A DNA stretch of 64,000 nucleotides from Moorena sp. SIOASIH (lineage in GTDB: Bacteria > Cyanobacteriota > Cyanobacteriia > Cyanobacteriales > Coleofasciculaceae): the NCBI RefSeq assembly GCF_010671925.1, contig NZ_JAAHIH010000001.1, forward strand, positions 677,053-741,052, read 5' to 3'. Positions 8,561 through 43,000 of this stretch are shown piece after piece. A program made the position numbers and the translations under genes. Positions within the stretch are counted from its first letter, which is position 1. Each line of letters starts with the position of its first letter. The notes under the pieces were generated by a model, which was not told the DNA's origin, made no database searches, and was given only the letters and a program-made list of their open reading frames with translations.

Positions 8561-8620
8561 AAAAATCAGCCGCCAAAATGGCGCTCAGAATTGATTGATC
8601 CTATATATAATGATTCCCGG
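8561..8620 (+). promoter_or_regulatory. Candidate promoter of RTX paralog B: AAAATCAGCCGCCAAAATGGCG box plus TATAAT
   Basis: The box sits about 19 bp upstream of tatatataat and about 50 bp upstream of the ATG. The same box recurs at 10288-10306 and 12322-12346. Confidence 0.5.
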
Positions 8621-8637
8621 AATAAGTCCATATAAAA

Positions 8638-9876
8638 ATGGAGAATTTAATGGGATCAAATACTTTATTTTTGCCGATTGTTAAAACCCCTAACTCCAAA
8701 CCGAACTTTGCTGACGCTACAGGAAGCGCCAAGTTCACCAACTATAGTCAACCAGCGTCTGGGTTTTTGACTCAAGCTCAGGCGCAGACTTTAGTCAAGG
8801 ATGGTGTGGGTTTTGCCCTTGCTAATGCTGACGCCACTTTTGTCAATAACCCAACCTTCTCTACACTATTTAGTCAAGCTACCGCAGCTGGTTTTGATGG
8901 TGCTTTTGAGAGTCGTTCGCAAAGTAACACTAAAGTAGTTGCTAGTTTTTCTGTTGGAGCTAATCAACAATTCTCTTTCAATTTCTCAGCAGATTTACGA
9001 CTGACAGCTAAAGAAATTGAAAATCCTAATCGGGAATATTCTCAGGCCAAGTCAAAGATAGGTTTTCTGGTTTTAGAGACTGAGAGTCACAGTAGACCTA
9101 AGGTTAAAGGGTTTTTTGGCATTGCTGGTGATTTAATCTCTTCCCGCAAAATCGGCGACTTGGATTTTGGCTCTAGTCGCAACGTCAAACTTAACGGTCC
9201 TTTTAAAACCACTGATATTGATGGCAACAACGGCGTAGACTTCGTCAAGGGTTCAGCCCAAGGCACTTATCAGCAAACCTTTAGCCGTGATAGCAAGATC
9301 ACGATCGTAGAAGTTAATAATAATGCTGTTAGTTTGTTGGGGGATACCTTAATCAACAGCCTGGGCAAGGATGTCCGCTATGGAAGTATTTGGGATGATA
9401 AGCTTCGTGGCACTTTCCGTAATGACAAAATTTATGCTAGCCTAGGCGATGATTCGATTCAAGGACTTACTGGCGATGACATCCTGGAAGGGGGTAAAGG
9501 CAACGATAAGCTGAATGGAGGGTTTGGTGATGATAAACTCCATGGCAGTTTTGGTAACGACACTTTGGTAGGTGGCGGTGGCAATGACACCATGGTTGGT
9601 GGTAATGGCGCTGACACATTTGTTTTCAATCGGATCAATAGCTTGCTTGGAAATGACTTTGATATCATCAAAGACTTCCAAGTTGGTTTAGATAAGGTTA
9701 AATTCCAAGGTTTTGGTCGAATTGACTCCAAAACTTGGTACAACAATGGGATAAATCAGGGTTACCTTACTAATACTAGTAATGGCGCTCTCTTATCTGA
9801 CGCAAAAGGTGGAGAAGTTTTGTTTGAAGGTGTGAATCTAAACGCTCTTAAGCATTCTGACTTCCACTTCGCCTAA
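8638..9876 (+). CDS. Secreted beta-roll (RTX-type) protein, paralog B
   Basis: 412 aa. Same architecture as 6913-8196: GDDILEGGKGNDKLNGGFGDDKLHGSFGNDTLVGGGGNDTMVGG, C-terminus SDFHFA. A TATAAT is about 20 bp upstream and a hairpin terminator follows downstream. Confidence 0.8.
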   Translation: MENLMGSNTLFLPIVKTPNSKPNFADATGSAKFTNYSQPASGFLTQAQAQTLVKDGVGFALANADATFVNNPTFSTLFSQATAAGFDGAFESRSQSNTKVVASFSVGANQQFSFNFSADLRLTAKEIENPNREYSQAKSKIGFLVLETESHSRPKVKGFFGIAGDLISSRKIGDLDFGSSRNVKLNGPFKTTDIDGNNGVDFVKGSAQGTYQQTFSRDSKITIVEVNNNAVSLLGDTLINSLGKDVRYGSIWDDKLRGTFRNDKIYASLGDDSIQGLTGDDILEGGKGNDKLNGGFGDDKLHGSFGNDTLVGGGGNDTMVGGNGADTFVFNRINSLLGNDFDIIKDFQVGLDKVKFQGFGRIDSKTWYNNGINQGYLTNTSNGALLSDAKGGEVLFEGVNLNALKHSDFHFA

Positions 9877-10099
9877 CATCCAGTCCTAGGGGCGAAGTAT
9901 TTGGGAAGAAACTTGTTGGAAAAACGACGATATTTAGATCCAAATGCTTCCCCTGATCGCTATTTTGGCAAGAGGTCTAATACCGAGTTGCATTCAAAGA
10001 TAGTAGATGGGGAGATGGGGAGATGGGGAAATGGGGAGATGGGGAGATGGGGAGATTGGGGGCAGATAAAGTTGTACCTTTGATCGCAACTTAGTATAA

Positions 10100-10137
10100 A
10101 GAAAAGAGGCGCACGCTAGGCGAACGCCTCTTTTTTC
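10100..10137 (+). terminator. Rho-independent terminator after RTX paralog B
   Basis: aaaagaggcg / cgcctctttt stem followed by tttttt. Confidence 0.65.
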
Positions 10138-10287
10138 ATATCAATACCATTTTTATAGTCCGGGTAATCGGTAATTGGTAATCGGTAATCAAACCACTAT
10201 TACCAATTATAAATTAAGTACATAGCAACAAATAATGATTAGTTAACTGTGACAATATATAACATTTAGTGATAATTTGCTGTAAAA

Positions 10288-10335
10288 TAAACAGCCAAAA
10301 TGGCGTTTGAAATATATTGATTATATTTATAATTT
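10288..10335 (+). promoter_or_regulatory. Candidate promoter of RTX paralog C: CAGCCAAAATGGCG box plus TTTATAAT
   Basis: Same box-to-(-10) spacing as upstream of paralog B. Confidence 0.5.
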
Positions 10336-10371: not shown

Positions 10372-12198
10372 ATGACATCAGACACTCTATTCTTAACCCC
10401 TAGAACCTCTAACTCCAAACCGAACTTTGCTAACGCTACAGGAAACGCTCAGTTTACCAACTATAGTCAAGCTCCTGCTGGTACCTTGACTAATGCCCAG
10501 GTGGAGACCTTGGTCAAGGGTGGTGTAGCTACTGCTATTGCTGATGCTAAAGCTAGCTTTATCAATGACCCAGCTTTCTCTCAACTTTTCACTCAAAGTA
10601 CTGTAGTTGGTACTGAGGGGGCTTTTCAGGGCAGTGCCAATAGCCGCACTGAAGTGGTTGGTAATTTTTCAGTGGGAGCTAATCAAAAATTCTCTTTCAA
10701 TTTTTCAGCAGCTTTAGAACTGAACGCTAAAGAAATTGAAAATTCCAATCGGGAATATTCTGAGGCTAAGTCGGGGACATTTTTTTTCCTGTTGAATACT
10801 GATCAGATGAATCAGCCCAAGATTATCGATTCGTTTGCTATCTCTGGTGATTTAATTTCTTCCCGTCGAATCGGCGATCTGGATTTTGGCTTTAGTCGCA
10901 ACATCACACTGAACTCTCCCACAAAACGCTTTGATATTAATGGGAACAATGGCATAGATTTCGTTAAGGGTTCAGTTACAGGCACTTATCAGCGCACCTT
11001 TAGTCGCAATACTAATTTGACGTTAGTGGAAATTAATCAAAGTGCCGTTAAATTATTAGGAGATACCTTAATTGGCAACTTAGGTAATGATGTTCGCTAC
11101 GGCACGATCTGGAATGATGAACTCCGTGGCACTAACAGAAATGACAAAATTTATGGCAGCCTAGGTAATGATTCCCTCTATGGATTTGATGGCAATGATA
11201 TTTTAGAAGGTGGTCAAGGTCACGATCAGCTATTTGGGAGCTATGGTAGCGACAAACTCCATGGCAGCTTTGGTAATGACACTCTTAAGGGTGGCTCGGG
11301 TAAGGACATTATGTATGGTGGCTCTGGTCGAGACATTATGTATGGTGGCTCTGGTCGAGACACAATGTATGGTGGCATTGATGATGACACCCTCAAGGGT
11401 GGCTCGGGTAACGATTTCATAGTTGGGGATGCTGGTAACCAAAACAACAATGTTAGTGTTTACCGTGGGCATCAATATCTCCTGACTTCGGTTGCTGGCA
11501 CCTGGGACGAAGCTCAAGCTGAGGCAAAGCGTTTAGGTGGTAATCTGGTAACGATTAATGATGCTGCTGAGCAAACATGGCTGTTTAACAAATTTGGTTC
11601 TAAGGAACTGTTTTGGATTGGCTTAACTGACAAGTCAAGAGAAGGTAATTGGAAGTGGGTCAGTGGTGAGTCAGCAACTTATCGCAACTGGTCTCCAGGA
11701 GAACCCAACAACGCCACAATCTATGGAACTCAACCAGAGGGTGAAGACTATGCCGTCATGGGTTGGGGCGATCGCGCCTGGAATGATTTAAGCGATCGCG
11801 ATCCTTGGCATAATAATCTGCGAGGCGTGATTGAGATCAATCAGCCCAGTAATAAAGATGCCATAATTGGTGGAGATGACGTTATTATTGGTGATCGCGG
11901 TAGTGATACTTTAGTCGGTGGCAGTGGCGCAGATAAATTTGTGTTCAAACGGAATGAGAGTTTGTTACCCGGTGAATTCGATGTCATCAAAGACTTTGAA
12001 GTGGGTGTCGATAAATTTGAATTCCAAGGCTGGGGTAATAATATTAATGCTTCCAAGTGGTTCAATAATGAAATTTCCCAACGTGGGATTATTGATACTC
12101 AAGATGGTGCTCTGTTCCGTTCTGATTATGGTGGAACTGTTCTGTTTGAAGACGTGAGTGTAGCAGATCTCAGCTACTCTGACTTTAGCTTTAGCTAA
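10372..12198 (+). CDS. Secreted beta-roll (RTX-type) protein with an inserted C-type lectin domain, paralog C
   Basis: 608 aa. Same N-terminal domain and RTX repeats. The extra ~150 aa segment carries C-type lectin hallmarks (WIGLTDKSREGNWKWVSGE...WSPGEPNN...WNDLSDRDPWHNNLRGVIEI). C-terminus SDFSFS. Confidence 0.8.
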   Translation: MTSDTLFLTPRTSNSKPNFANATGNAQFTNYSQAPAGTLTNAQVETLVKGGVATAIADAKASFINDPAFSQLFTQSTVVGTEGAFQGSANSRTEVVGNFSVGANQKFSFNFSAALELNAKEIENSNREYSEAKSGTFFFLLNTDQMNQPKIIDSFAISGDLISSRRIGDLDFGFSRNITLNSPTKRFDINGNNGIDFVKGSVTGTYQRTFSRNTNLTLVEINQSAVKLLGDTLIGNLGNDVRYGTIWNDELRGTNRNDKIYGSLGNDSLYGFDGNDILEGGQGHDQLFGSYGSDKLHGSFGNDTLKGGSGKDIMYGGSGRDIMYGGSGRDTMYGGIDDDTLKGGSGNDFIVGDAGNQNNNVSVYRGHQYLLTSVAGTWDEAQAEAKRLGGNLVTINDAAEQTWLFNKFGSKELFWIGLTDKSREGNWKWVSGESATYRNWSPGEPNNATIYGTQPEGEDYAVMGWGDRAWNDLSDRDPWHNNLRGVIEINQPSNKDAIIGGDDVIIGDRGSDTLVGGSGADKFVFKRNESLLPGEFDVIKDFEVGVDKFEFQGWGNNINASKWFNNEISQRGIIDTQDGALFRSDYGGTVLFEDVSVADLSYSDFSFS

Positions 12199-12237
12199 CC
12201 CCCAATTCTAGAAGAAGCTGAGTGCTGAGTGCGCAGG

Positions 12238-12269
<32 letters not shown>

Positions 12270-12282
12270 GTCAGTGCTGACA

Positions 12283-12314: not shown

Positions 12315-12539
12315 CGTCCTAAAAAAAATCAGCCAAAATGGCGATACCTTTTGAAGATAGTTATTTATGATAGTGGTGGGCTTAATGCTTTCCATCAAAA
12401 GCTCAGATCTGGCTTTGGGTGAAGAGGCTGGTAGCCCAATCCATGGTCGGTTAAGCAAGGGTCAACTGTCAAAGGAAAGGCAAGAGGCAAGAGGCAAGAG
12501 GCAAGAGTTAATCAAATATAGAAGGATTTTTGGTAGCAA

Positions 12540-12810
12540 TGCAGTGGCCTCACGGGGAGGCAGTGCCGCCAAAGGGGGTTCCCACGGGGCTTTCAAGGTG
12601 CCGACGCAGGTTCCGCACACAGACCCATGCGCCATGAGCAACTGCCGTGGTTTCCCCCACTCGCGCTTCGGATCAAGACAGTAAGCATTCAGCAGTCAGC
12701 AGTCAGCCGTTGGCCACAGAGCCAAAGCTGATAGCACCTCAAGTAGCGTGGCCATTCGCTTAGCGTGGCCATAGGCCAAGGCTCAAACCTGATAGCTAAA
12801 TGCTTACTCA
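12540..12810. repeat. Composite MITE-like small-repeat cluster (GTTCGCGTAGCGTGGCC / AATGCTTAC / CACCTCAAGTAGCGTG modules)
   Basis: The same modules recur at 41640-41950, 53880-54195 and 50400-50465. Fragments occur at 8400-8470, 13125-13170, 29190-29240, 37030-37065 and 62735-62760. Confidence 0.75.
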
Positions 12811-13192
12811 AGACAAGGTCAAAAACGGTAATTATTTTGTATAATAGATTTAGAAATGCTATATAGGTAAACTACTTACTAGAAGAAGCATGGCAAGAGG
12901 ATGAACTTCTGCTAGAAATTCTGCCACTAGAGTCTCTTTTGACAGTAACCTCTTGAATAATGGTTGCTTCATCTCCAGAGGCAGTTGCTGTACTTTCGGC
13001 TTGGACTACAACCGTACCATCTGGTGAAACTATCCATTTTCTGATTGTCTGGGAACGTCTCATGGTTACATCACTCTAGTTAGTTATTTTAGTCATGGGG
13101 TAAATTCAATTTACTTACCCCTGCTCCGAAGCTCCGTTCGCGCCCCGCGTGCCCTACGGCCTCAGTCCCTAAAACCAGTAATAGCATTGGGA

Positions 13193-13951
13193 TTATTCCC
13201 CAGTATTGATGCTACTAAGTTCACTATGGATCATATAGTTAACTTCACTATTGAGCCACTCTTGAAACATACTCTGTAAAATTTCTTTAGACTTTTCTTC
13301 GGTTAATTCAGCTGGAATAAATTCTTCAACTAAGAAAAGATGATATCCTTGTTCGGTTTGCAGGGGATGAGTCACTTCTCCTGGCTGAACACTAAAGATA
13401 ACGGCAGCTATCTCAGGCTTAAAACTCCAGCGAGGCAACTTTCCTTCATAGCCACACCGTCGCTGCCTTTCTGGGTCTATATCATAGAAATGAGCAGCTT
13501 CATAAAAACTGATTTCTCCTTCCTCAATCTGATAGAAAAGCTCCTGAGCAATTTCCTCAGAATCCACCATAATTTGATAAACCAACACTTGCTCAAAGTC
13601 CAGTCGATTTTGAGCAAAGCTTTTTTCGACATCCTTAGAAAATAAGGACTCAGCAAGCTTTTGGGCAAGCAAGCGATCGCTAATTCCCGCTTCCCAATCT
13701 TCTGCTGTCACCATCTGATCTGCCAGCCAGGCCAATGTTTCTGCTGCCTTTTCCAAACGATGGGCATAACGGATCTCATCCGCCTGAGCTTGCACGTCTT
13801 CTGGTGTGACTGTTATCCCTCTTTCCTGAGCCGCTTTATTGATAACTCGTTGATACAAAACTTTTTGACAGATGCCCTTCAGATGCATCTCCTTTTTCAA
13901 GGAGTACATAATTTCCTCTGGAGTCACCGATGCTTTGGAAAGGTCAACCAT
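13193..13951 (-). CDS. PpiC/parvulin-type peptidyl-prolyl cis-trans isomerase with an N-terminal SurA-like chaperone segment
   Basis: 252 aa. The parvulin core pattern is readable: VLVYQIMVDSEEIAQELFYQIEEGEISFYEAAHFYDID...GYEGKLPRWSFKPEIAAVIFSVQPGEVTHPLQTEQGYHLFLV. Confidence 0.65.
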   Translation of the reverse strand: MVDLSKASVTPEEIMYSLKKEMHLKGICQKVLYQRVINKAAQERGITVTPEDVQAQADEIRYAHRLEKAAETLAWLADQMVTAEDWEAGISDRLLAQKLAESLFSKDVEKSFAQNRLDFEQVLVYQIMVDSEEIAQELFYQIEEGEISFYEAAHFYDIDPERQRRCGYEGKLPRWSFKPEIAAVIFSVQPGEVTHPLQTEQGYHLFLVEEFIPAELTEEKSKEILQSMFQEWLNSEVNYMIHSELSSINTGE

Positions 13952-14342
13952 TACACCCGATTATTAACTAGAACTGGAACTACTTACAGTCTTGGTCAGA
14001 TTCAGCTGAGTCAACCCTCTGACTCTTATCATGATACAAAAAGCAATTCCTAACCTCTGCCAAGTTGCCGAATTGAGGGCGTAGTATAGCAATTATCATA
14101 GTTATGAGCGACATTGCTTATCCTTTTAAGGCAGAGGGCAGAAGGCAGAGGGCAGCAAGGCAAGAAGGTCTTAAAGGCAATCAGCACCAATAAAGACTGT
14201 ACCTCATAGGTATGAGAAACGCTATATTTGCCAGTCAAACCTAGAGTTTAGACTTATCCCTCAATCAAAACACCTCGCCCCTCAATCCCCGTTTTGAAGC
14301 CAGCACACAGAAGCTAGATTAGATTTTGTGAAGCTTATAGCT

Positions 14343-15788: not shown

Positions 15789-16061
15789 CTAGTGAGAAGA
15801 ACTAGCAGATGTTGCATTTAGGCTAGAATGAGAACTATAGTCAGTAGTTGTAGTAGTGCCATTGATGCTGGTGAAGGTATTATTACCAAAGGCTCTTGCG
15901 TCGCCGTCAACCCTAGCTACGTGCCCTTTAATGTTGGTACCGACGTTGATATATCCGTTATATACGAAAGAGTTGTAGTGAGGTGGGTAGTAGCGAGATC
16001 CACCCACAACCTTGGGGTCCTCAGCAATAGTTTCTAAATGATTTAGATCAGAAATAATCAT
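15789..16061 (-). CDS. Double-glycine leader peptide / bacteriocin-like precursor (90 aa)
   Basis: Shine-Dalgarno aaggag upstream. Leader MIISDLNHLETIAEDPKVVGG. Core is Tyr/Thr/Ser-rich (SRYYPPHYNSFVYNGY...TTTTTDYSSHSS). A GCCAATTTGGC box lies about 90 bp upstream. Confidence 0.6.
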   Translation of the reverse strand: MIISDLNHLETIAEDPKVVGGSRYYPPHYNSFVYNGYINVGTNIKGHVARVDGDARAFGNNTFTSINGTTTTTDYSSHSSLNATSASSSH

Positions 16062-16366
16062 TATTTACTTTTCTCCTTTTGACTTTTTTTGTGTTAATAA
16101 ACTTGTTGAGTTTACACTCTAATTAAACTAGCAAATTTCCAAAATGTTTGTCTCGCCAATTTGGCAAGAAACCTATTGAGTTCCGGTTTGATATAACTAT
16201 TGGCGATTTAATACCCTGAAGTAATCAAACTGAAGCAATCAAACGTAAACCTGAGTGTACTCATCCTGATATAGAACTAAATTTGCTGCATGCGCTGCAT
16301 TCTATTAGGATATGAGGACACCCAGGTTTACAAGTTACTTAATCAGAAACTTGTCCTGAATAAGTA

Positions 16367-16696
16367 TTAGTAGGGGAAGATAGCAGAGGTAGTAATACCT
16401 ACAGACTTGGAGGCAGTTCCGTCAGGACCCTCAATAGTAACGGCTACGCTTTGTTGCTTAGTACCAACATTAAAACCGCTAGCGCTAGAACCTTCACCTT
16501 GGCTAGAGCTTGAAGCGCTAATACCACTAATGTCTACATTAGCTGTAATGTCAACACTGAAAATGTCGGTTTCGGTGACGGTGCTGGTGGTGCTTAAATT
16601 GGTGACGATATCGTTGTTGAATGAGATTCCAGCAGAAGCACCTTGAACTTGGCTAGCGTCAACAGATTCTAGATGGTTTAGGTCAGAAATAAGCAT
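16367..16696 (-). CDS. GG/GA-type leader peptide / bacteriocin-like precursor (109 aa)
   Basis: Shine-Dalgarno aaggag 8 nt upstream. Leader MLISDLNHLESVDASQVQGA is nearly identical in its first 10 residues to the 15789 ORF. Core is Ser/Thr-rich. The same GCCAATTTGGC box lies about 92 bp upstream. Confidence 0.6.
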   Translation of the reverse strand: MLISDLNHLESVDASQVQGASAGISFNNDIVTNLSTTSTVTETDIFSVDITANVDISGISASSSSQGEGSSASGFNVGTKQQSVAVTIEGPDGTASKSVGITTSAIFPY

Positions 16697-17039
16697 TGAT
16701 TTTCTCCTTCTTTGTTGTTGATTTTGTTTGTTTGAATCAGCTTTGTTTGAGCTGTTGATATAACTATAGCCAGATTCCCCTAGGCATGTCTCGCCAATTT
16801 GGCTTAAACCTTTTTTTTTTTTAAATCACTGAATTTACTAAAAGTATCTAGTCACCAGTAACCGATTTTGAATTAGTTCAAAGAGATTGGTAATCTTGAT
16901 GGGGTTTTATTGAAGTAAGTTATTAGTAATGAGCGTGTTATTATATCTAATCTAATTAAAAATTTGAACGCCACTTTGGCTTGATATTGATGATTGAATT
17001 CTCCCAGAACTAAAGTAGGTACTTTCGTTCTGGGTTTTA

Positions 17040-17236
17040 GGGAGTAGGGAGTAGGGAGTAGGGAGCAGGGAACAGGGACTTCGGAGCAGGGAGTGTGGGA
17101 AGTGTGGGGAGAGGGGGGCGTGTGGGGCGTGTGGGGCGTGTGGGGAGATGGGCAGAGGGGAGAGTGTGGGAAGTGTGGGAAGAGGGGGGCGTGTGGGGCG
17201 TGTGGGGCGTGTGGGGAGATGGAGAGATGGGGAGAT
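17040..17236. repeat. STRR-like heptamer tandem arrays (GGGAGTA, GTGTGGG, GATGGGGA)
   Basis: Direct reading. Similar arrays at 10012-10062, 12217-12280, 15278-15327, 43927-44075, 44096-44172, 45095-45244, 45925-45992, 54938-54993, 59176-59250 and 63137-63378. Confidence 0.9.
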
Positions 17237-17683: not shown

Positions 17684-18118
17684 TCACCACAGGGAAACCA
17701 AACAGTCTTGCCGTAAATACTCGGCTAACTTCTTGAGCATGGATTCCTCTTCTTCCAGTTCACTGATAAACCACTCTTCTTGATCGCCACCGTGGACGTG
17801 TGAGGTTTTCTTGCCAAGCTTCTCTACATAAGCCAGATCTTTGATCTGGCTCAAACGCTGCCGTGCATTCAAGGCTTTAGTGCCATTGCTCATCATACTA
17901 GCTTGCTTCTGTAAGATCATATCCCGGTTTTGTTTGAGCAAGCGGCTGTAGGTTCTAGAAGGCATGTAGTCTAGGGGGTTATGGCCCGCAAAGCGTAGCA
18001 TCAACACACAAGCCCAAGAATACTTGCCATCAAGGATGGCTTCCTCGATCTCGCTAAACTTATCGGTATCCATCACTTTTTCGAGCTTGGTATTGGCAGA
18101 AGGAATACGATAGGTCAT
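17684..18118 (-). CDS. HetP-like protein (hetC-associated family)
   Basis: 144 aa. Core [34 protein letters not shown] is shared with the ORF at 24352-24666. It lies immediately downstream of the HlyD/HetC-like pair, matching the hetC-hetP arrangement known in Anabaena. Family assignment is from recollection of the conserved SWACVL core, not a search. Confidence 0.55.
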
Positions 18119-18287: not shown

Positions 18288-19892
18288 CTATAGATCGATG
18301 CCACTTTTTTGCAGCTGTCGCATCGGATCCAATAAGAAATCGATAATCCGACGGCGGCGGATGATGATGTCAGCATTGGCGGTCTGACCAGCCTTAAACC
18401 GGATGATTTCATCCTCTTCAATCACATAGTCACGGTCGAGGGACACTTTCACCTTATAGACTGAACCCATTTGTTGATCGGCTTTAGCATCGGAAGAGAT
18501 GGAAATCACCGTGCCTTTGATGATGCCGTAATCCTGATAGGGATAGGCATCAAATTTTACTTGCACTGGCATTCCTTCGTTAATGAACCCTGCCTCGCGA
18601 GTAGGCAAACTTGCGGATAGCACTAGGGGGGCACCTTGAGGAGCGATTTCGGCGATGCTACGTCCCGGTTGCACCACTTCACCAGCATTAGCAATGTTGA
18701 GGGAAGATATTATCCCATCCACTGGCGCTTTGAGAAACTTCTGTTTGAGCCTGGTTTTAGCAGTAGTAACCAGGGTTTCATTTTCAGCAATTCTAGCTTT
18801 GATTTGGGTCAGTTCTAGTTCTAACTGTTGAATTTTCTGCTGTGTTTCTAAGCGAGTGGTGCGTCCCGTCGCTTGCCGATGCTCTAATTCTGCTTCTAGT
18901 CGCTTGATTTCTGCTAAAGTCTGTTCTAGCTCACCTCGGCTTTGGCTAGTCGCCGCTTCGCGATCGCGTATACTTTGCTGAGCTTGAAAGATCTGTTCCC
19001 GAGTACTCAAACCTTCTTGCAGTTTGCTTTCAGTAACAGCACTTTGGCTAGCACGAAAGCTTTGTTCTGCTTGAAATACGTGTTCTTTGGAGATTGCTCC
19101 TTCTGCCAACAGAGGTTTAAGGTTATCGAGTCGTTCCTTGAGAGCCACTACATTAGCCCGCCGTTGCTGGAGCAGTTCTTTGGCTGTCGCCTGCACCAGT
19201 TTCAGCCGTTGTAATCGTTCGCGATTAGCAGCTTTAGCTAACTGATGTTGAATGATTTGTTGTCTAATCGCCGACGCACTAGCTTGTGCTCGTGCGATCG
19301 CAGCTTGTTGCCCTTGAACTTCTGCTTGGGTAATTTGCTCACGGGTTTCCGCTTCCAGACGGGTTCTGTCAATCAGTCCTTGCATCTGAACTAACTTAAT
19401 CCGGTCTGAATTAAGCACTTTCTCTAAACGCTCTACTTCCTGAGTGGCAAGGTCTGTATCCAGTTCCACCAAGACTTCCCCAGCTTTAACCGCTTGCCCT
19501 TCTTTGACCTTAATACTGGCAACCTTGCCTGGCTCAATCGGGTCAACTTTATAAACGTCCCCTTTTGGCACTAAGCTTCCATGAGCTTTACCCACTTCAT
19601 CAATCTGCCCAAACGTTGCCCAAGCCACAAATATTGTACAGAAGCTTAAGCCACCCAACATCAGCAGCCGAGGAAGGTTCGCCGGAGGCTGATCGAGGGT
19701 AGTTTGTATGGAGGTTGACCATTTGGACGTACTAGGAGCATTGGCAGTATTGGTTCCTACCTCTGTGCTGGGTGAGGCTACAGCCTCTTGGTCATAATCA
19801 GGTCTCAGGCGACCTGATGGCATTAAAACGACGTTACCCTGACGACTGGTAGCCGCTTCAGGTGGGGAGTTGATTGGTTTTGCTTGTGTCAT
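18288..19892 (-). CDS. HlyD-family periplasmic adaptor, paralog 2
   Basis: 534 aa. Collinear with the ORF at 459-2093 (same TM, coiled-coil and C-terminal IIIRRRRIIDFLLDP). Confidence 0.85.
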   Translation of the reverse strand: MTQAKPINSPPEAATSRQGNVVLMPSGRLRPDYDQEAVASPSTEVGTNTANAPSTSKWSTSIQTTLDQPPANLPRLLMLGGLSFCTIFVAWATFGQIDEVGKAHGSLVPKGDVYKVDPIEPGKVASIKVKEGQAVKAGEVLVELDTDLATQEVERLEKVLNSDRIKLVQMQGLIDRTRLEAETREQITQAEVQGQQAAIARAQASASAIRQQIIQHQLAKAANRERLQRLKLVQATAKELLQQRRANVVALKERLDNLKPLLAEGAISKEHVFQAEQSFRASQSAVTESKLQEGLSTREQIFQAQQSIRDREAATSQSRGELEQTLAEIKRLEAELEHRQATGRTTRLETQQKIQQLELELTQIKARIAENETLVTTAKTRLKQKFLKAPVDGIISSLNIANAGEVVQPGRSIAEIAPQGAPLVLSASLPTREAGFINEGMPVQVKFDAYPYQDYGIIKGTVISISSDAKADQQMGSVYKVKVSLDRDYVIEEDEIIRFKAGQTANADIIIRRRRIIDFLLDPMRQLQKSGIDL

Positions 19893-20689
19893 GGTGGTAG
19901 ATCACGCTAAATTAACATTTTAGGGAAATGACCAATGTTTTGGGAAAGTCAGCGACCAATTCTCTTGCTGCCCTTAGCTTTGCGGGGCGAGTTGGGCATT
20001 GTTGAGCAGACCGAAATCTTTGGCATTACCTGACTTCTACTTGCCCCTTTTCCAGATAGCTTAAATGCACCCCGAGATCAGAACTTAAACCCTTCCCCTT
20101 TAAGTAGCCGTCGGTCGGTCAAACCTCTTGGCTGAGCACGCTGTGAGGTGTGGACTTGAGCAGGACTGACCTTAGGGTTAGGCTCTCCAAGTTACCTCCG
20201 TCTCACCTTTGGTGGGGTGCATGGGAGTGAATTAAACAAAGGAATTGGAATTTAACTCTGCCGCAGTGTGCATCATGGGGGATTCTCAGGGGATTCTAAA
20301 CGGTTGTTACGAGATGGGTGTGGAGCCATATCTGAACACGTTTTTCTCCCCTTCTATTCTCACAGCGCTTTTCCACTTTTCTGATAAAAGATCAATTTCA
20401 TCTGAGTATGTTGCTAAATTGGCAGATTTTTGGCAGCTTTTTACAAAGCTTGACATAGTGATAGCTAGCTTCAAATTTCATTTGTCCTTAGTCATTAGTC
20501 CTTTTCACATCACTGTGTTGCCAAATTGGCAAATTTTTACATAGTTTGATATAGTGATAGGTAGCTTCAAATTTTCTTAGTCATTAGTCCTTTGTGGCTA
20601 ACCACGGTCTGTTGGTATTTACAAATGACTAATGACTAAATAACTAATAACTAATAACTAATGACTAATCAGCACTTGTTAACGATCTA

Positions 20690-23600
20690 TTAAAGATCTA
20701 GCTGCTGCTGCGCTAGATGATAGTAAAGACCTTGACGATCCATGAGTTCCTCATGGTTGCCTTTCTCGACCAGAACACCTCGGTCTAGGACAAGGATGCA
20801 GTCAGCATTGCGCACTGTAGAGAGGCGGTGGGCGATGATGAAGGTAGTGCGATCGCGACTAATGCGAGCTAAGTTTTGTTGAAAGCGGCGCTCGGATTCT
20901 GTATCTAGAGAGCTAGTCGCTTCATCCAGAATCAGAATCTTGGGGTTGCCCAATAGGGCTCGGGCTATGGCAATCCTTTGTCGTTGTCCACCAGAAAGGG
21001 TAGAGCCTCGCTCTCCTACTTTTGTATTATATCCCAAAGTCATACCTTGAATAAAGGCATGGGCTTCTGCTAGTTTGGCTACCTCTACGGCTTGATCGAG
21101 GCTGAAATCTGGTCGGTAGAGAGTGATATTTTCGACAATTGTCCCCGAGAACAAGAAACATTCTTGGGGTACCACACCCATTTGAGAACGCAAGGATTGG
21201 GGGGAAATATGGCGGATATCGTGTCCATCTATCAAAATACGACCATTAGTCGGATGATAGAGACCTTGGAGTAGCTTCACCAAGGTACTCTTGCCCGAGC
21301 CACTGCGCCCCACTAGAGCAATGGTTTCTCCAGCCCTAATATCTAGGGAAATATTCTGTAGGATATTGCGATCCTCATCCTCCGAGTATCGGAAGGTAAC
21401 ATCTTCCAATATTACATCACCCTTAATCTCAGGTAGAACCAGCATCGGTTCTTGAGGATTCTCCTCTGGCTTAGCAGATAAGACATCATTCAGCCGTTCT
21501 ACAGACACCAAGATTTCTTGAAACTCATCCCAAAGATTCACTAGAGCCAAAATTGGACCAGTCACTCGGCCAATGAGCATATTAAACGCGACATACTGAC
21601 CGATAGTAAGCTGCTCACTAATTACTAAGCTAGCGCCAAACCAAAGTAAAGCGGTGCTGCTGAGAGTATTAATTAGAGAACTAATTGACCCCAACCCGTT
21701 CGCTAGGTTTCTACCTTTAAATTGTACATTCAACTGATTGGTGAGGCGATCTTCCCAGCGCCAGCGCACTTCTTGTTCTGAAGCCGCCGTTTTTACAGTA
21801 GCAACCCCTGACATCATTTCCACTAACATAGAATTTTGTTGAGCTGCTTCTTTAAAAATTTCCCTGGACACCTGGCGTAGAAAGGGACTGGCAATCACAG
21901 TCAAGATGGCGATGGGTAAAATCGTTGCCAGCACCAGCAAGGTTAAGCGCCAATTGTAGTAGAGCATCAGTCCAATATAGACAAACACCATCACCACATC
22001 TAGCCAAGTAGCAATAGCTTGCTGAGTTATAAAACCCTGAATTTTTCCAGTTTCCTGAATTCGGGTCAGGATATCCCCCACCTGGCGGGATTCAAAAAAC
22101 TTCAGGGGTAAGGTCAGGGTATGGTTTATGAACCCACTGATGAAGGTGAGACTAAGCCGATTAGAAAAATAGTCGAGCAAGTAGCGTCTGGTTAGACTAA
22201 CCCCAATTGTCCAAAGGCCAAAGATGATTAGACCAATGGAGAAGACATTGAGAGTGACAAGGCTTCTGTTGATAATCACCCGGTCAAGAATGATCTGGGT
22301 AAATAGGGGAGTAATCAGACCAAAAACCTGAAGGATGAGGGTAGCCAGGATAATTTGCAGCAGAACTGAGCGATGGGGCCATAGCAACCCCCAAAACGGC
22401 CCTAGAGAACGTTTGTCGCTGGGAATCACTGCTAGTTGGGGAGTTGGATCCAAGAGCATGGCATACCCAGTCCAACCTTGGAGAAAGTCTTTGCGAGGAA
22501 GCGATCGCTTCCCCACTGCTGGATCAGCAACGAGTACCTTATTACCCTTTACCTGGTAGACAACAATATAGTGATCTCCTTGCCAGTGAGCAATCCAAGG
22601 ATTACTCCGATCCGCTAAGCGACCTAAAGAAGCCCTGACTGGACTAGCTTGAAACCCTAAACTTTCCGCTGCTTTAGCTAAACCTTTGAGGGATGAACCA
22701 GAACGACCCACTCCCGCCAGTTCCCGCAGGGAGTTGAGAGCAAACCTTTTGCCCCAATACTGCCCAATCATGGCTAAGCAGGCAGCACCACAATCGGAGG
22801 AAGATTGCTGCTCAATAAAAGGATAGCGCTGCCAAAACCTTAGGAATCTCCAACCTTGCTTTGCTGGTTTGGGAAAATCAAAGCTTTCTGACTGACTCGG
22901 TTCTTTTGGCGTTTGTTGCTTAGGAGGTTCTAAAACTCGCCGAGTCGGTCGTGCTCTAGTCTGGTTTGGATGTGGTGACGGAGTATGGGTCTTGTTAACT
23001 AGGCGTTGATGGGATGGAGATTTACCGTCACCATTTTTAGCAGTTTGCCTGTTCTCCTGATCCGGTGACTCGGTGGAGTTATCCAAAACTGGTGCGATCG
23101 CGCAAGCCGCTTGCCAATGCTCTTGAGGCAGCTGGTAAAGCAATACATCAGTTTGGGCAATCCAATTTGTTGGTACTGACATCGGATATCCCCAACTTTC
23201 TCCGATGCTAGGAAATGGGGCAGAGGAATTTTCCTCTGTTCCTTCTGGCGTTCCCATTTGACCACTACGTAGCCAGCAATGCCCAGCTTGGGAACAGGAC
23301 ACCAGAGACTCCCCAGCCTCAATTCGTGTTTCTACGATGTAGGGCAACAGTTGATTTAGGGTAACACCGTTAAGCGTACGCAATTTGGTCAAAGTCTTGA
23401 AGAAAATTAGGCATTGCCGGTGCTGGGCTTGTTTCCCCAGGATTTCCGACCACTTTGGCAACCGTTCCAACCAAGGCAAGAGTTGATTTAGCGAAATACG
23501 AGCAACTTGTCCTGAACTCGCTGCGATCGCTCTGTAAGGATAGGATAGACTACCTAAGAGATCATAGGCACCAAAGGTTTCCCCTTCTTCGAGTACCTGT

Positions 23601-24351: not shown

Positions 24352-24666
24352 CTAGACCTTACTAACAACCTTTGATTGTGATACAGGGGTTTTGCCAACT
24401 GGATGCTTACCAGCTTGACTATTTTCTTTGATTAACCGATTGTAGGTTCGGTAAGGGATGTAATGGAGGGGGTTGTAGCCAGAAAAACGCAGAACTAACA
24501 CACAAGCCCAAGAATACTTGCCTGCGATGATAGCTTCTACGACCTGGTTAAGCTGCTCATTAGTCATGACTTGTTCAGAGCTCGTAGAGGTTGACGTTGG
24601 TTGAGATGTTCTACTAGTTGATGGTCTACTAGTTATTGAAAGCAATTTTTTTGCCATGGTAGTCAC
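24352..24666 (-). CDS. HetP-like protein, second copy
   Basis: 104 aa. [35 protein letters not shown] core after a Ser/Thr-rich N-terminal tail. Confidence 0.5.
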
Positions 24667-30991: not shown

Positions 30992-31357
30992 TTACTCTTT
31001 TAAGTTCCCTTGACTGGGGTTTTGAGGCAAAGTAGACACCCTAGGGGTTCTACCGTATAGCCGGTCTAAAACCCGCTTAACCGAGATCCGTTTCCACTGC
31101 TGACCACGCTTGGTTGTATAGCCCTGTTGATTGAGCCAGTTAGCAATTTGTTGTAATGACTTGCCCGATTTATGGTGACGGCGAATTAACTCAATTACAT
31201 GCTGTTCTTGGGGATCATCCACCAACTCACCATTTAGGGCCCGTTGACCGAAGGCCGGTGAACCATAACCTGCATAGCCACCCATAGTTGCCTTCGCTTG
31301 TCTACCTTGGTTTAGCCTTTCGATCAGGCTATCCCATTCCAATTCCTCAGCAGCCAT
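30992..31357 (-). pseudogene. Remnant of a large serine recombinase (recombinase domain only; catalytic domain missing)
   Basis: 121 aa with the recombinase-domain signature GGYAGYG...LVDDPQEQHVIELIRRHHKSGKSLQQIANWLNQQGYTTKRGQQWKRISVKRVL. Only about 200 bp separates it from trxA, so there is no room for a catalytic domain. Confidence 0.45.
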
Positions 31358-39101: not shown

Positions 39102-40397
39102 TCAAATTTTTCGATAAATATCTTCTGAGTTAGCGTTCAAGTAGGGACGCCGCAACTCAATCCCAAACTGAGAAAACTGTTGTTGTATAGAGTTCATCCG
39201 ACCTTCGGGAGAATCGTTACCGTTTTGCCAAACTTCTAGTAAGCCATTAGCAACCATTTGCCAACGGTTCATCCCGAAACTTTCTTCAGCCGTAAATTTA
39301 TGGACTGGTTCCTCTGAGAGAGCCAGTCCTGGTGCTAGCTGCTTGGTAAATAGAGGTACTTCCATCTCAAAATGGGATTGGTGTTGAGCATAAACACTCT
39401 CAAGGATGGGATGGACTGTGTCATAATTGCTCTTCTCAAAGCAGAGAACCCCTGAATCGTAGCGGTCGTAGTTAGCGGGGTCATCTACCACCTTAAAGGT
39501 AAAGGGAATGGTAATTTCATTAAGTTGCTCGGTGATCCCTCTCATCACAGCAACTGCACCTTCGGGACTGAGATTAAAATAGACGTTCACTATCTGGTTG
39601 TCACGATCTCCAATCTTCTGATTGACTGGACCAGCATTGACTGAACCAGCATTACCAACTGCGACATAGAATCCGTGTTCAACTAGATTAGGAGGCATTC
39701 GGATAGTGACTAAGCTACCGACAGTAGCAGATTGAGCCGCTGGTGGTAAGTAATACTGAGGTCTGATGTGCAAGGTCAGACCATTCTTGTGTACAGCCAA
39801 CTTGCCATCACTCTCCTCCCTGATTACCAACCAACCTGGTTCAAAGTAACCAGTCCCAGTATTATTTTCGTACAGCTGCTGGTAAAACTCCAGGTTCAGC
39901 CCCATCACAGTATTGTTTTCTAAATTTGGGTGAAGCGGTAACTCAGTTGAATTGGCTTCGGCTGATTCTGTGGCTTTATCCAAACCGTTGTCATAGATGT
40001 CGTACAGAAAACTGAGCAGTTGCAGGCTCAGATACTTATTCTGGATCTCCACAGGTAGTTGCTGAACCCGGTCTAGCATCTCAGCTGAAAGTTCCAGAGG
40101 TTTGTAATCTGGATGACTAATACAGAAGTTAGGTTGAATCTGAAGGTTGCTAACGATGTCTTCTAGAATATCCAGCTCTCGCGCAACAGCAGAATCAGGA
40201 GAAGAATCAGGTAGTTGATTTCGCAGAGAATTTAGTAATGGCATCATGAACCAGTTGGGACTCAAAATACTCAGACCAATTGTCGTGTCGGCCTGCAACA
40301 AATTTTTCCTTCCTTTTGTAGGACTTACGACGTTTAGTTGGTTTTGCCCCCCTAACCCCCCAAATCTGGGGGGGACAAAGTCACGAAAGTCCCCCAA
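39102..40397 (-). CDS. Hypothetical protein partnered with the downstream kinase-like gene; family not assignable from sequence alone
   Basis: 431-aa ORF. The first ~50 codons run through a STRR-like repeat, so the true start is probably MMPLL at about 40247. Lies 14 bp downstream of the kinase-like gene on the same strand. Confidence 0.45.
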   Translation of the reverse strand: MGDFRDFVPPRFGGLGGQNQLNVVSPTKGRKNLLQADTTIGLSILSPNWFMMPLLNSLRNQLPDSSPDSAVARELDILEDIVSNLQIQPNFCISHPDYKPLELSAEMLDRVQQLPVEIQNKYLSLQLLSFLYDIYDNGLDKATESAEANSTELPLHPNLENNTVMGLNLEFYQQLYENNTGTGYFEPGWLVIREESDGKLAVHKNGLTLHIRPQYYLPPAAQSATVGSLVTIRMPPNLVEHGFYVAVGNAGSVNAGPVNQKIGDRDNQIVNVYFNLSPEGAVAVMRGITEQLNEITIPFTFKVVDDPANYDRYDSGVLCFEKSNYDTVHPILESVYAQHQSHFEMEVPLFTKQLAPGLALSEEPVHKFTAEESFGMNRWQMVANGLLEVWQNGNDSPEGRMNSIQQQFSQFGIELRRPYLNANSEDIYRKI

Positions 40398-40411
40398 TTA
40401 GAGAAAGGGGA

Positions 40412-41602
40412 TTAGGCGGGAATCGGGCTAAGACCAGTTAATTGAGAGGCTGTTGTCCCAAAAACAATGGGGATTGAATCGTCCGGATTGCATAACAAAC
40501 GCTTAGCCACCTGAACCATACAGACTCCTGTGTTACCAAAGATTTCCCGGTACTCGATCCTTGTCTGAATTTTTTCAATCAAGATAAAACCAGTAAATTG
40601 TATCACTCGTTTCAAAAAATCAGGACTACGCTGAAGTATTTCTGGAAAGTAATCAAAATAAGCGTTAGTTAGAGCAACAAGGCTTGGTTGAATTACCTCA
40701 AGGGGAATTTTAGCTAAGCGTAAAGCAGTTTGAACATCAATACTTCTGTTAACCGTTAAGCTACTTAGCCAAATGGTTAGGTAGTTAGCAATAATCGTAG
40801 CTAAATCAAATGCTGGATCTGACCAAGTGAACCTCTCCCAATCAATCATTCGCAGGATATTTGTACCTTCAGGCTGGTGGTTTGAGAGGGTTTGCTCCCA
40901 CTCAAGCTGGACTAAAACGTTGCTGAGCTTAAGGTCATTGTGGGTCAAACAGCAAGGCTGCCAAGCTCTGTTAAGTTCTGCGATCGCTTGCCCTATGCTC
41001 TCATGGCGCTGATAAAGTTTAAAGAATTCAATCCCATCTGCACAAAATATCGCAAAAATTTCTGGTCCAATTCCTTCTAGCCCATGAAGCAAGTTAGGGG
41101 CTTTGTCAAGGAACTCTTTTCCATGGGAGGCAAAGAAGTTTTTATATTCGTGACGGTCTAGAGTGGTGCGATGGATTGTAGCAATACTAGCTCCGAGCTG
41201 GGCTGCGATCCCAGTGGGAAAAACCTCCTTTTGATCATAAAAATCTGTTAAGTCGCAATAGTCATTGAGATAGTTAAAAACAATAATAGAGCAACTGGGA
41301 TCAAAATGAATTGGCTCCGATATTAGGGGACGAATGGGGCTCAGTTCTGGAAATTTTTGTAAAAATTCCTGAATTCGCCATTCGTTATGCAACTCACCTA
41401 AGGTGTTTCCTTCTCGATTATGAGGCTCTTGTTTAACCAAAAGATGGCGACCATTGGAAAAACTGACTAGCAAATTAAAGTTTTTACAGGATATTGGTTT
41501 AATCTGGATTTTATCTTGATATGTTGGCTTACAAAGCCCCTGTTCAACTAGATAATCTAAAACGTTTTGAGAGCTTAATAAAAATGTCATTATAATTCTC
41601 AA
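40412..41602 (-). CDS. Kinase-like (APH/phosphotransferase-fold) protein
   Basis: 396 aa. Catalytic loop HNDLKLSNVLV and IDWE motif typical of the aminoglycoside-phosphotransferase / protein-kinase-like fold. Confidence 0.65.
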   Translation of the reverse strand: MRIIMTFLLSSQNVLDYLVEQGLCKPTYQDKIQIKPISCKNFNLLVSFSNGRHLLVKQEPHNREGNTLGELHNEWRIQEFLQKFPELSPIRPLISEPIHFDPSCSIIVFNYLNDYCDLTDFYDQKEVFPTGIAAQLGASIATIHRTTLDRHEYKNFFASHGKEFLDKAPNLLHGLEGIGPEIFAIFCADGIEFFKLYQRHESIGQAIAELNRAWQPCCLTHNDLKLSNVLVQLEWEQTLSNHQPEGTNILRMIDWERFTWSDPAFDLATIIANYLTIWLSSLTVNRSIDVQTALRLAKIPLEVIQPSLVALTNAYFDYFPEILQRSPDFLKRVIQFTGFILIEKIQTRIEYREIFGNTGVCMVQVAKRLLCNPDDSIPIVFGTTASQLTGLSPIPA

Positions 41603-41639
41603 TATTACCGGGTGCTAAACCCAGTAATAGCCTCAACTA

Positions 41640-41950
41640 TTGCTTAGACACGGCTGATGGAATCGTAAGCTATCAGCTATCAGCGATTAGCGCTACGCGC
41701 ACGCTACTTGAGGTGCTATCAGCGATTAGCGCTACGCGCACGCTACTTGAGGTGCTATCAGCTAATGCGCGTAGCGCAATCGGTGCTTTTGAATACAAGA
41801 GGTAAGCATTCTTTTAATCTGAGTTAAGTCCCAGCGTCGTTCGCACAGCGTGGCCAAAGGCCAAAGCCTGTTCTACGCGAACGAGGTTTATTTTAAGCTG
41901 AAGGCTGACCGCTGACTGCTGAATGCTTACATGGTATCAAACCCTTATCA
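41640..41950. repeat. MITE-like small-repeat cluster including a 45-bp tandem duplication
   Basis: gctatcagcgattagcgctacgcgcacgctacttgaggt occurs twice. The taatctgagttaagtcccagcgt and gctgaatgcttac modules are shared with 54050-54195. Confidence 0.75.
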
Positions 41951-42167
41951 TCAGTTATTGTCAGGCATTTTGGGAGTCAGTAATTACGCAGTTAATCTAC
42001 CTGTAGGGTGTGTTATTAACGCACCCTACTAGTTATCGAGTTTGGTGCCCAGGTTTGCGTAAGTTTTGGGAGGAAAATGTCCCCAGCATCTGACTCCTAA
42101 AATCCCTATCCCCCAGTAATGAAAAGGACTTTATCCATTTACTCAGGGGAACTGAACTCTATAGGGA

Positions 42168-42476
42168 CTAATGCACTGGTCTACAATTGTGTGGAAAGAA
42201 ACCGGGATGTGGAAAGAAAAAGCCACCTTTGCTGGGTTTGAACCGGCTGGGTTTGAACCGGCTGGATTTGGAGCGGCTGGGTTTGAACCGGCTGGTTTTA
42301 AAACCCTTGCTACTTTTACTGCCAAAGAAAAAGCCACCCTTGTTTTTTTTGCCGCCGCCTTCTATACCCTTGAGTTCATCTTCGGTTAGATCTTTCATGA
42401 ACTCATGGAATCCTTCAGACTCCGAAAACAGAGCTGAACCAGCAGGAGGCAGATCAGAAATTGAGAAGTTACTCAT
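42168..42476 (-). CDS. Canonical double-glycine-leader peptide with a cationic repetitive core (bacteriocin-like precursor)
   Basis: Preferred start is MSNFSISDL (42476), which has a GGAG Shine-Dalgarno. The track ORF starts 8 codons earlier with no Shine-Dalgarno. The leader ends MKDLTEDELKGIEGG, matching the consensus Leu(-12)...Glu-Leu(-8/-7)...Ile(-4)-x-Gly-Gly. The core GKKNKGGFFFGSKSSKGFKTSRFKPSRSKSSRFKPSRFKPSKGGFFFPHPGFFPHNCRPVH is encoded by tandem 15-nt repeats. Confidence 0.5.
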   Translation of the reverse strand: MSNFSISDLPPAGSALFSESEGFHEFMKDLTEDELKGIEGGGKKNKGGFFFGSKSSKGFKTSRFKPSRSKSSRFKPSRFKPSKGGFFFPHPGFFPHNCRPVH

Positions 42477-43000
42477 GTTACAATCTCCAATAGTAGACAA
42501 TTGGGGAAAATAAGCACTTCTATTAATTAGCTACTATGTTGCCTGCGACTAGGTTTTGTTAATAGGTAATAGTCAATGGGACATCAGGCATCGTAATCCA
42601 ACTACCAATGACCAATTACCAATGATCAATTACCAATTAAGCATCTCATTATTTTCGCTAATTCATATTACATGCCTATTTTCCGGCGAATTCAGATCAA
42701 GTCCGGTTAATCACGTCCAGAATAGTCCTTTGATTTTTGGCTTACTGTAAGTAATAGATGATGGATAATCTTAAACTACGAATTACCAATGACGAATTCC
42801 CAATTTTCAATTGCCACCATCAGGGATCTTTATGATTATTGAACCGGACTTCCGATGATCTGTGTTTTTGGGACTTTCATAATTTAGCTAGATAAGTTAT
42901 GGCGATGTCGCCACTTTGGCGCTAATTTACAAAAATTCATCAAGATTGACGCTTTGGTAATTGGTAATTGGTAATTAGTAATTAGTAATTAGCTTGGTTC

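Follow-up and report, generated by a model that had tools for sequence, protein, structure and literature searches.

A palindromic box at a fixed distance from a predicted -10 element recurs before cargo and machinery genes of HetC-like peptide secretion clusters in cyanobacteria

The stretch of DNA analyzed here, referred to below as the window, comprises 64,000 nucleotides of the cyanobacterium Moorena sp. SIOASIH (NCBI RefSeq assembly GCF_010671925.1, contig NZ_JAAHIH010000001.1, positions 677,053 to 741,052). It contains two secretion modules, each with a HetC-like exporter and an HlyD adaptor, together with repeated copies of a short palindromic box, GCCANNNTGGC (GCCA-N3-TGGC). The modules were recognized by means of Pfam and NCBIfam scans and from the translations of the open reading frames (ORFs). 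The genes on which the following account depends are these:

459-2093, minus strand: HlyD adaptor of module 1 (Pfam).
2264-5473, minus strand: HetC-like exporter of module 1 (Pfam cNMP_binding, Peptidase_C39, ABC_membrane, ABC_tran).
Starts at 6913, 8638 and 10372, plus strand: RTX paralogs A, B and C, lying between the modules.
13193-13951, minus strand: SurA-like peptidyl-prolyl isomerase (PPIase; Pfam).
17684-18118, minus strand: HetP-family gene 1, downstream of HlyD (NF037966, E = 4e-28); candidate regulator or exporter substrate.
18288-19892, minus strand: HlyD adaptor of module 2 (Pfam).
20690-23917, minus strand: HetC-like exporter of module 2 (Pfam cNMP_binding, Peptidase_C39, ABC_membrane, ABC_tran); anchor of the cross-species comparison.
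24352-24666, minus strand: HetP-family gene 2, upstream of the module-2 ABC gene (NF037966, E = 5.5e-35).

Four small genes are also found on the minus strand between the modules, and two of them start with MxISDLNHLE and have a Gly-Gly or Gly-Ala site, that is, a CTB-like double-glycine leader. The RTX identity of paralog B is supported by a match to Pfam HemolysinCabind. The three RTX proteins have a common N-terminal region (MTSDTLFL...NSKPNFANATG), and in paralog C (10372-12198) a C-type lectin domain, which A and B lack, separates the RTX repeat blocks. Group I and II bacteriocin clusters of cyanobacteria contain a long-type C39-ABC protein with CAP_ED, HlyD, a SurA-like rotamase, double-glycine precursors and HetP-like proteins (Wang, Fewer and Sivonen 2011, PMC3140520). 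The window has the same complement (cNMP/CAP_ED-C39 ABC, HlyD, SurA-like rotamase, double-glycine precursors and HetP-like proteins): it contains two modules of this kind, no listed component is missing, and its gene cluster is a member of this known group. That paper contains no promoter analysis, and the word "promoter" occurs in it 0 times. What is new here in relation to the group I/II clusters is the shared promoter box, the geometry of this box and the RTX proteins as box-controlled cargo.

There are nine exact copies of the box in the 64 kb. Dinucleotide shuffling gave a mean of 0.85 copies and a maximum of 4, and none of 100 shuffles reached nine, which bears out the enrichment proposed in the initial annotation of this DNA. 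Eight exact sites had been listed there (8572, 10294, 12332, 16155, 16793, 16970, 20520 and 42910), as well as a degenerate site at 20413 (GCTAAATTGGC); all eight were recovered, and the site at 20413 proved to be a copy with one mismatch. The coordinates of that list were thus correct, but the list was not complete. It lacked the ninth exact copy, at 2643-2653, and a one-mismatch box at 6596, located 5' of RTX paralog A. Because the peptide genes lie on the minus strand, the boxes at 16155, 16793, 16970 and 42910 are to be read on that strand. Apart from the copy at 2643-2653, the sites are as follows:

6596-6606, plus strand: degenerate box GACAAATTGGC; -10 TATGGT at 6630-6635, offset 23; position weight matrix (PWM) score 15.6; putative promoter of RTX paralog A.
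8572-8582, plus strand: box GCCAAAATGGC; -10 TATAAT at 8606-8611; predicted promoter of RTX paralog B, ATG at 8638.
10294-10304, plus strand: box GCCAAAATGGC; -10 TATAAT at 10328-10333; predicted promoter of RTX paralog C, ATG at 10372.
12332-12342, plus strand: box GCCAAAATGGC; -10 TATGAT at 12366-12371; orphan predicted promoter, the site being kept in M. bouillonii (L003 21742).
14059-14069, minus strand: GGCAACTTGGC, one mismatch; 22 nt, then TATCAT at 14031-14036; tentative candidate 5' of the SurA-like PPIase gene 13193-13951(-).
16155-16165, minus strand: box GCCAAATTGGC; -10 TAGTTT at 16125-16130; predicted promoter of the CTB-like double-glycine peptide gene 15789-16061(-).
16793-16803, minus strand: box GCCAAATTGGC; -10 TATAGT at 16763-16768; predicted proximal promoter of the CTB-like peptide gene 16367-16696(-).
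16970-16980, minus strand: box GCCAAAGTGGC; -10 TATAAT at 16940-16945; predicted distal tandem promoter of the same peptide gene, 16367-16696(-).
20413-20423, minus strand: GCCAATTTAGC, degenerate copy about 107 bp from the 20520 unit, with flanks that are similar by eye; no recognizable -10.
20520-20530, minus strand: box tGCCAATTTGGCaac, in the intergenic region of the ABC (20690-23917) and HlyD (18288-19892) genes; weak -10 TAATGA at 20492-20497.
42910-42920, minus strand: box GCCAAAGTGGC; -10 TAAATT at 42881-42886; about 400 nt 5' of the unlinked double-glycine peptide gene 42168-42476(-).

When both orientations are read, a TAnnnT hexamer is found 23 or 24 nt past the box, in one orientation only, at eight of the nine exact sites. 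The composite element (exact box, 22-24 nt, TAnnnT) occurs 8 times in the window, compared with 0.05 expected and a maximum of 1 in 100 local shuffles. Oriented by TAnnnT, seven of the eight sites have the sequence GCCAAA(A/T/G)TGGCG. Two points of the initial annotation required revision. The gap between the box and TATAAT before RTX paralogs B and C, given as about 19 bp, is 23 nt. The leader-peptide genes (15789-16061 and 16367-16696) are encoded on the minus strand, and the boxes at 16155 and 16793 stand upstream of them in that reading, 93 and 96 nt before the ATG.

Several individual sites call for comment. The transcript of RTX paralog A (6913-8196) would have a long 5' untranslated region of about 270 nt if it started from the promoter at 6596. 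The candidate at 14059 is no better than chance one-mismatch matches. Distal tandem copies such as that at 16970 are present in other Moorena loci (L001, L002 and L005), where 1-4 of them are found. The PWM points both boxes between the ABC and HlyD genes, 20520 and 20413, toward HlyD, and a box in this intergenic position is the predicted HlyD promoter in six other cyanobacterial genera (L011, L014, L016, L019, L033 and L038). The unlinked peptide encoded at 42168-42476 has a very basic, repetitive core (KPSRFKPSR...GGFFF), and short repeats occupy the region between its gene and the promoter at 42910. The DNA behind the orphan promoter (12332-12900) has short tandem repeats and a GC-rich stretch. 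This promoter could be a remnant, or it could drive an unannotated transcript.

The copy at 2643-2653 was rejected as a regulatory site. It lies inside the module-1 ABC gene, where its codons specify the conserved A-K-L-A of the nucleotide-binding domain, and the paralogous position in the other ABC gene reads GCTAGTTTGGC (21069). A related species (L034) has a box at 12660, near the same end of its ABC gene. The site in the window is probably a coding coincidence. A reading of the box as an RNA hairpin was also discarded: the stem would have just 4 bp, and the box is upstream of the predicted start.

For comparison across species, one genome per species was scanned with the module-2 exporter, which gave 80 loci, 39 cyanobacterial and 41 non-cyanobacterial. 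The cyanobacterial loci consist of 5 from Moorena, with 96-97% exporter identity, and 34 others, among them Coleofasciculaceae, Stenomitos, Leptolyngbya, Oscillatoria, Nostoc, Xenococcaceae and Mastigocoleus. The 41 loci from Firmicutes, Bacteroidota and other groups served as controls. Boxes are found next to related cNMP-C39-ABC exporters at some 25 further cyanobacterial loci belonging to several orders, and their density differs between the classes of loci:

Cyanobacterial loci, ABC at least 52% identical: 57 boxes in 370 kb, 1.54 per 10 kb.
Cyanobacterial loci, more distant ABC paralog: 2 boxes in 175 kb, 0.11 per 10 kb.
Non-cyanobacterial loci: 27 boxes in 779 kb, 0.35 per 10 kb.

The last two densities are at chance level. 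The initial annotation had allowed that the motif might be equally frequent elsewhere; the contrast between 0.11 per 10 kb in the distant-ABC loci and 1.54 in the related clusters speaks against this. With few exceptions, boxes in the related cyanobacterial loci have an A/T-rich N3 at their center; in the non-cyanobacterial loci, 7 of the 27 boxes do. Locus by locus, the boxes track HetP-like genes and CTB-type leaders, and all ten cyanobacterial loci that have neither HetP-like genes nor CTB-type leaders have 0 boxes. A motif-first scan of metagenome contigs with TGCCAAAATGGCAA-N20-22-TAnnnT, of qualitative value only, gave a double-glycine peptide as the first downstream ORF in at least nine loci among the 80 matches listed (L099, L107, L115, L116, L129, L138, L143, L144 and L146). 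One of these loci has three tandem promoter copies. A chance origin is not expected for the nine loci that have a peptide gene behind the motif.

The distance between the box and TAnnnT is conserved together with the box. In non-Moorena cyanobacteria, the offsets of TAnnnT form one narrow maximum at 23 nt, which accounts for 30 of 59 boxes over a background of some 3 at each offset, and in Moorena the peak is at 23-24 nt (28 of 33 boxes). The corresponding histogram is flat in the non-cyanobacterial controls. A logo was built from 44 unique non-Moorena sites, and the flanking positions played no part in the selection of these sites. Position -1 is T in 41 of the 44 sites, +11 is A in 36 and +12 is A in 29; A is also favored at -8, -5 and -4. 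The 22-nt spacer is uninformative, with the spacer and upstream columns at about 0-0.3 bits. The general element is consequently an A-rich tract, a 13-bp palindrome TGCCA-N3-TGGCA, 22 nt and TAnnnT. In the cargo promoters of Moorena, +11 is G instead of A and -1 is variable instead of T, while the HlyD-side sites keep T and A. These differences may represent a lineage-specific shift in recognition or two classes of site.

The genes behind the box belong to both the cargo and the machinery of secretion. The class of a site was taken from the first classifiable ORF within 450 nt of the oriented box. In non-Moorena loci, 18 double-glycine peptide genes, 7 HlyD genes, 5 RTX genes, 2 ABC genes and 1 HetP-like gene were found in this way, with 11 sites assigned to other genes or none; the Moorena sites gave 18 double-glycine peptide genes, 2 RTX genes and 9 others. 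A Nostoc locus (L018) has a separate box for each of its HlyD, CTB peptide, ABC and HetP-like genes. From the -10 to the ATG of the peptide genes the median distance is 66 nt, with a narrow mode at 53-76 nt, and larger distances belong to distal tandem copies. Whole promoter units, with A-tract, box, spacer and -10, are repeated in tandem before single peptide genes. In L033 (6718-7059) a unit of 79 bp is present in 4.3 copies at 98% identity, and in a Moorena metagenome-assembled genome (L005 15877-16201) a unit of about 162 bp is present three times. The pair 16970/16793 in the window is an arrangement of the same kind. In Nodularia, four adjacent CTB bacteriocin genes form separate transcription units that are co-induced by long phosphate starvation (PMC9846622), which is indirect support for shared activation.

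No -35 hexamer accompanies the box. When TTGACA was sought at 16-18 bp, 70 box promoters gave a mean best score of 2.43 matching positions out of 6, and random TAnnnT sites gave 2.47. The distance from the center of the box to the start of the -10 is 29 nt, and if TAnnnT is the -10, this places the center at about -41. The canonical NtcA promoter is GTA-N8-TAC-N22-TAN3T, with its center 29.5 nt from the -10. Class II promoters of NtcA, FNR and CRP resemble the box promoters in having a palindrome centered about 29 nt before TAnnnT (about -41.5), in lacking a -35 hexamer, in the proposed service of many promoters by one factor and in outer triplets 10-11 bp apart, as for a helix-turn-helix (HTH) dimer. 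The box itself is not an NtcA site, since GTA-N8-TAC is present in none of the sites. It differs from the NtcA site in its sequence, TGCCA-N3-TGGCA, in its odd length (13 bp, the dyad passing through a base pair), and in being attached to a secretion regulon and not to nitrogen assimilation. The most economical reading, by analogy, is that the box promoter follows the class II geometry of NtcA and FNR.

Double-glycine peptide systems of Gram-positive bacteria (the ComE, PlnC/D and BlpR boxes) use LytTR response regulators, which read direct 9-bp repeats 12 bp apart. They are similar to the present clusters in that one cis-element is repeated before peptide, C39-ABC and accessory genes, whose expression there is coordinated and often autoinduced. 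However, the box is a single 13-bp palindrome near -41, whereas the LytTR sites are direct repeats located further upstream and read by phosphorylated regulators. A LytTR-type promoter was rejected on the basis of the single inverted repeat and because no two-component or LytTR gene is present among the window ORFs or the conserved families.

We therefore consider the box to be the operator of one promoter class and the binding site of a dimeric activator that co-regulates the exporter and its cargo, with a probability of roughly three in four. The start sites, activation rather than repression, and the dimeric state of the factor are predictions drawn from the DNA. A dimeric regulator coordinating cargo and transporter had been put forward in the initial annotation, and this proposal gains support from the fixed register to the -10, the extension of the dyad, and the cargo and machinery genes found behind the box. 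RNA polymerase with a housekeeping-type sigma factor would need a box-bound protein for initiation because of the missing -35 hexamer. The symmetry of the 13-bp site is that expected if a dimer reads it, and the bound protein would most likely be a symmetric dimer touching the outer TGC and GCA triplets; these are separated by 10 bp, a distance compatible with one recognition helix in each of two successive major grooves. One factor would in this way jointly switch on the CTB-like double-glycine peptide genes, the RTX cargo, and HlyD with the genes behind it, and in some species also the ABC/C39 exporter gene and the HetP-like gene. Where the whole promoter unit of 80-160 bp is duplicated in tandem, as before some peptide genes, output would be higher. 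No description of the motif was found in the searchable literature, where 12 variants of the literal string matched just primers and unrelated eukaryotic sequences, and nothing cyanobacterial; the papers on these clusters and on hetC-hetP (PMC3140520, PMC10986499) do not mention it either. As far as that literature shows, the motif is undescribed, and it would be a new cis-regulatory motif defining a conserved secretion regulon.

A number of observations weigh against this interpretation. About a quarter of the oriented non-Moorena sites have no classifiable gene within 450 nt; the causes include contig ends, distal tandem copies, misorientation of the palindrome and leaders missed by the regular expression. 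In the window, the promoter at 12332 has no convincing gene downstream, and no Rfam match either, and the HlyD-side boxes of Moorena at 20520 and 20413 have no good -10. Most of the listed metagenome matches are chance occurrences in unrelated DNA, as 17 specified bases were sought in a large collection. The predicted position at -41 presupposes that TAnnnT is the -10.

The box could instead be a repressor operator, at which a dimer occupying -46 to -36 would exclude RNA polymerase as long as no signal freed the promoter. Palindromic operators are typical of repressors, the box overlaps a region that the polymerase must contact, and the co-regulation of cargo and exporter would follow equally well. 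Nevertheless, promoters without a -35 element should be weak when unaided, and repressor operators tolerate variable positions, while the rigid register of 29 nt from the center to the -10 is a mark of class II activation of the NtcA/FNR type. Repression is an improbable explanation for this reason.

A second alternative is that a dedicated alternative sigma factor recognizes the box as its upstream promoter element. A precedent exists in heterocyst-forming cyanobacteria, where the DIF1 promoters of sigma-HetZ (TCCGGA-N16-17-TGNA) contain a palindromic hexamer that is read at -35 by an unusual sigma factor with the help of HetP (PMC13342950). As in the box promoters, a short palindrome stands upstream of the -10; HetP is functionally involved in the DIF1 class, and the HetP domain model described below resembles sigma region 4 among other HTH domains. 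Identity with the DIF1/sigma-HetZ promoters was rejected, because the sequence, position (-35 vs -41), spacing and type of -10 all differ from the logo. The distance from the box to the -10 is 22-24 nt and not the 16-17 nt of -35 elements, the -10 is an ordinary TAnnnT and not the TGnA of sigma-HetZ, and two-fold symmetry over 13 bp would be unexpected for a single sigma domain. A dedicated sigma factor is accordingly quite unlikely.

It is also conceivable that the recurrence of the box is a functionless by-product of duplication, either of paralogous promoters or of a mobile repeat such as a miniature inverted-repeat transposable element (MITE), as the initial annotation had considered. Several sites do stand at paralogous genes (RTX A, B and C and the two CTB genes), the units at 20413 and 20520 are duplicates, and tandem promoter arrays exist. 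However, the 62-nt flanks of the 10 window sites share 19-52% identity, which is near random for AT-rich DNA and reaches 50-52% in the paralogous RTX promoters only, while 11 bp are invariant. Flanks of this kind indicate that the box is not part of a MITE or of a longer repeat. The same box and spacing also stand before non-homologous genes (peptides, RTX, HlyD, ABC and HetP-like) in distant cyanobacteria with unrelated spacers, and duplication without function is very improbable. Hardly any weight can be given to the idea that the box is a restriction-modification or methylation target or an abundant palindrome like HIP1; although interrupted palindromes are typical recognition sites and cyanobacteria have many such systems, the box is at chance density outside the clusters (0.11 per 10 kb), its central N3 is constrained to A/T, and its orientation and distance to the -10 are fixed.

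If the box is the site of a dimeric activator, the question arises as to which protein binds it. No classical transcription factor was detected in the window when all but one of the 48 ORFs with a length of 80 aa or more and several shorter ones were compared with Pfam or NCBIfam. Over the window and 28 related loci, 29 sequences in all, the conserved families comprise the ABC exporter, HetP-like proteins, HlyD, the peptides, the PPIase and a ~300-residue protein; none of them belongs to the classical transcription factors. In the N-terminal 366 residues of the exporter, only the cNMP domain matches Pfam or the PDB, and no HTH was found. HetP-like proteins are present in 25 of the 29 sequences, in 33 copies. 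A full-length AlphaFold2 model of a HetP-like protein had a pLDDT (predicted local distance difference test) score of 59 and no Foldseek match in the PDB, and a profile search of PDB sequences was also empty. A domain-only model based on a deeper alignment gave a confidently predicted three-helix HTH-like fold, a possible DNA-binding fold, which resembles sigma region 4 among other HTH domains. HetP of Anabaena is reported to be a non-specific DNA-binding protein that is needed for the occupancy of promoters by sigma-HetZ (PMC13342950). A HetP-family protein is the sole conserved candidate encoded at the loci, and its role as the box regulator is plausible but unproven; we advance it tentatively. 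An unlinked dimer of the CRP/FNR type or another HTH dimer is equally possible.

HetP-family proteins have a further property that may connect them with the exporter. About two thirds of them contain, at residues ~85-122, an internal motif resembling a double-glycine leader (IxDLxYLE-N7-12-GG), after which comes a tail of 6-33 residues. The motif is a leader of the same type as the N-termini of the CTB-like peptides. It was already noted in HetP-like proteins (KIxDLxYLEx10GG), which were treated as possible precursors (PMC3140520). In the window, the protein encoded at 17684-18118 carries the motif, followed by DQEEWF..., and that encoded at 24352-24666 is without it. One HetP-family contig (L201, Mastigocladus) stops at the HetP-family gene, without an ABC gene on it. 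These features permit the more speculative suggestion, which we regard as rather doubtful, that cluster-linked HetP-family proteins are box-binding activators controlled by the exporter through a transporter-coupled proteolytic switch. The internal leader is joined to an N-terminal HTH-like domain and shares its type with the leaders of the cargo, so that the exporter would dock HetP on its C39 domain and cut it at the internal double-glycine site. The cut would free or inactivate the DNA-binding domain, and the short C-terminal tail would be exported. The activity of the regulon promoters (cargo, HlyD and hetP-like) would then be coupled to that of the exporter, possibly with gating by ppGpp via the cNMP domain. 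If true, such a switch would offer a mechanistic ancestor of the hetC-hetP pair that acts in heterocyst commitment.

The remaining features of the window stand apart from the box promoters or merely surround them. An Rfam scan of the window gave a tRNA as the sole match. Short tandem-repeat arrays are found around the box promoters: Tandem Repeats Finder (TRF) reported the heptamer TAGGGAG and the nonamer GGGAGTGTG at 17038-17235, and repeats of the CAGTGCT type near 12215-12275 and of the TAATTAC/CAATTAC type near 42940-43160 were seen by eye. Mobile-element genes are represented by an IS605-family OrfB/TnpB with a Cas12f-like TNB domain at 29303-30535(-) and a PD-(D/E)XK family transposase at 54997-55851(+), and a recombinase fragment lies at 30992-31357(-). 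The region 39102-41602(-) encodes a HopA1 effector-family protein (E = 2e-54) adjoining an APH/choline-kinase-like phosphotransferase, which is unusual for a cyanobacterium. Two large paralogous NACHT-HEAT repeat (STAND NTPase) genes with NNH2 N-terminal domains, together with an NNH2 fragment, occupy 55985-63282(-).

The promoter signature has several practical uses. It could predict the regulon in any genome, including unlinked cargo such as the peptide at 42168-42476, and nominate substrates of HetC. The box is usable as a DNA-affinity bait for the regulator. It also suggests a rule for the heterologous activation of silent peptide clusters in producers of natural products, for example Moorena, in that the activator would be required and tandem units would raise the output.

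Many cyanobacteria carry HetC-like peptidase-ABC exporters with double-glycine peptides. In Anabaena/Nostoc PCC 7120, the hetC product has the same domain architecture as the exporters described here, and a HetP-family gene adjoins it (PMC10986499, PMC4133259). The cNMP domain of HetC binds ppGpp (PMC10986499, PMC4133259), and HetC and HetP are needed for heterocyst differentiation, while the substrates of HetC and the on-signals of HetC-like systems are still open (PMC10986499). No HlyD gene or double-glycine substrate gene lies near hetC-hetP in PCC 7120 (PMC10986499), whereas in the window the cargo genes are adjacent and share the box. The finding bears on the open questions of what HetC-type exporters carry and what HetP-type proteins do, and it ties RTX-type proteins to the same regulon as the small peptides. 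The box promoters probably mark the common on-switch of a peptide-secretion system related to hetC and hetP.

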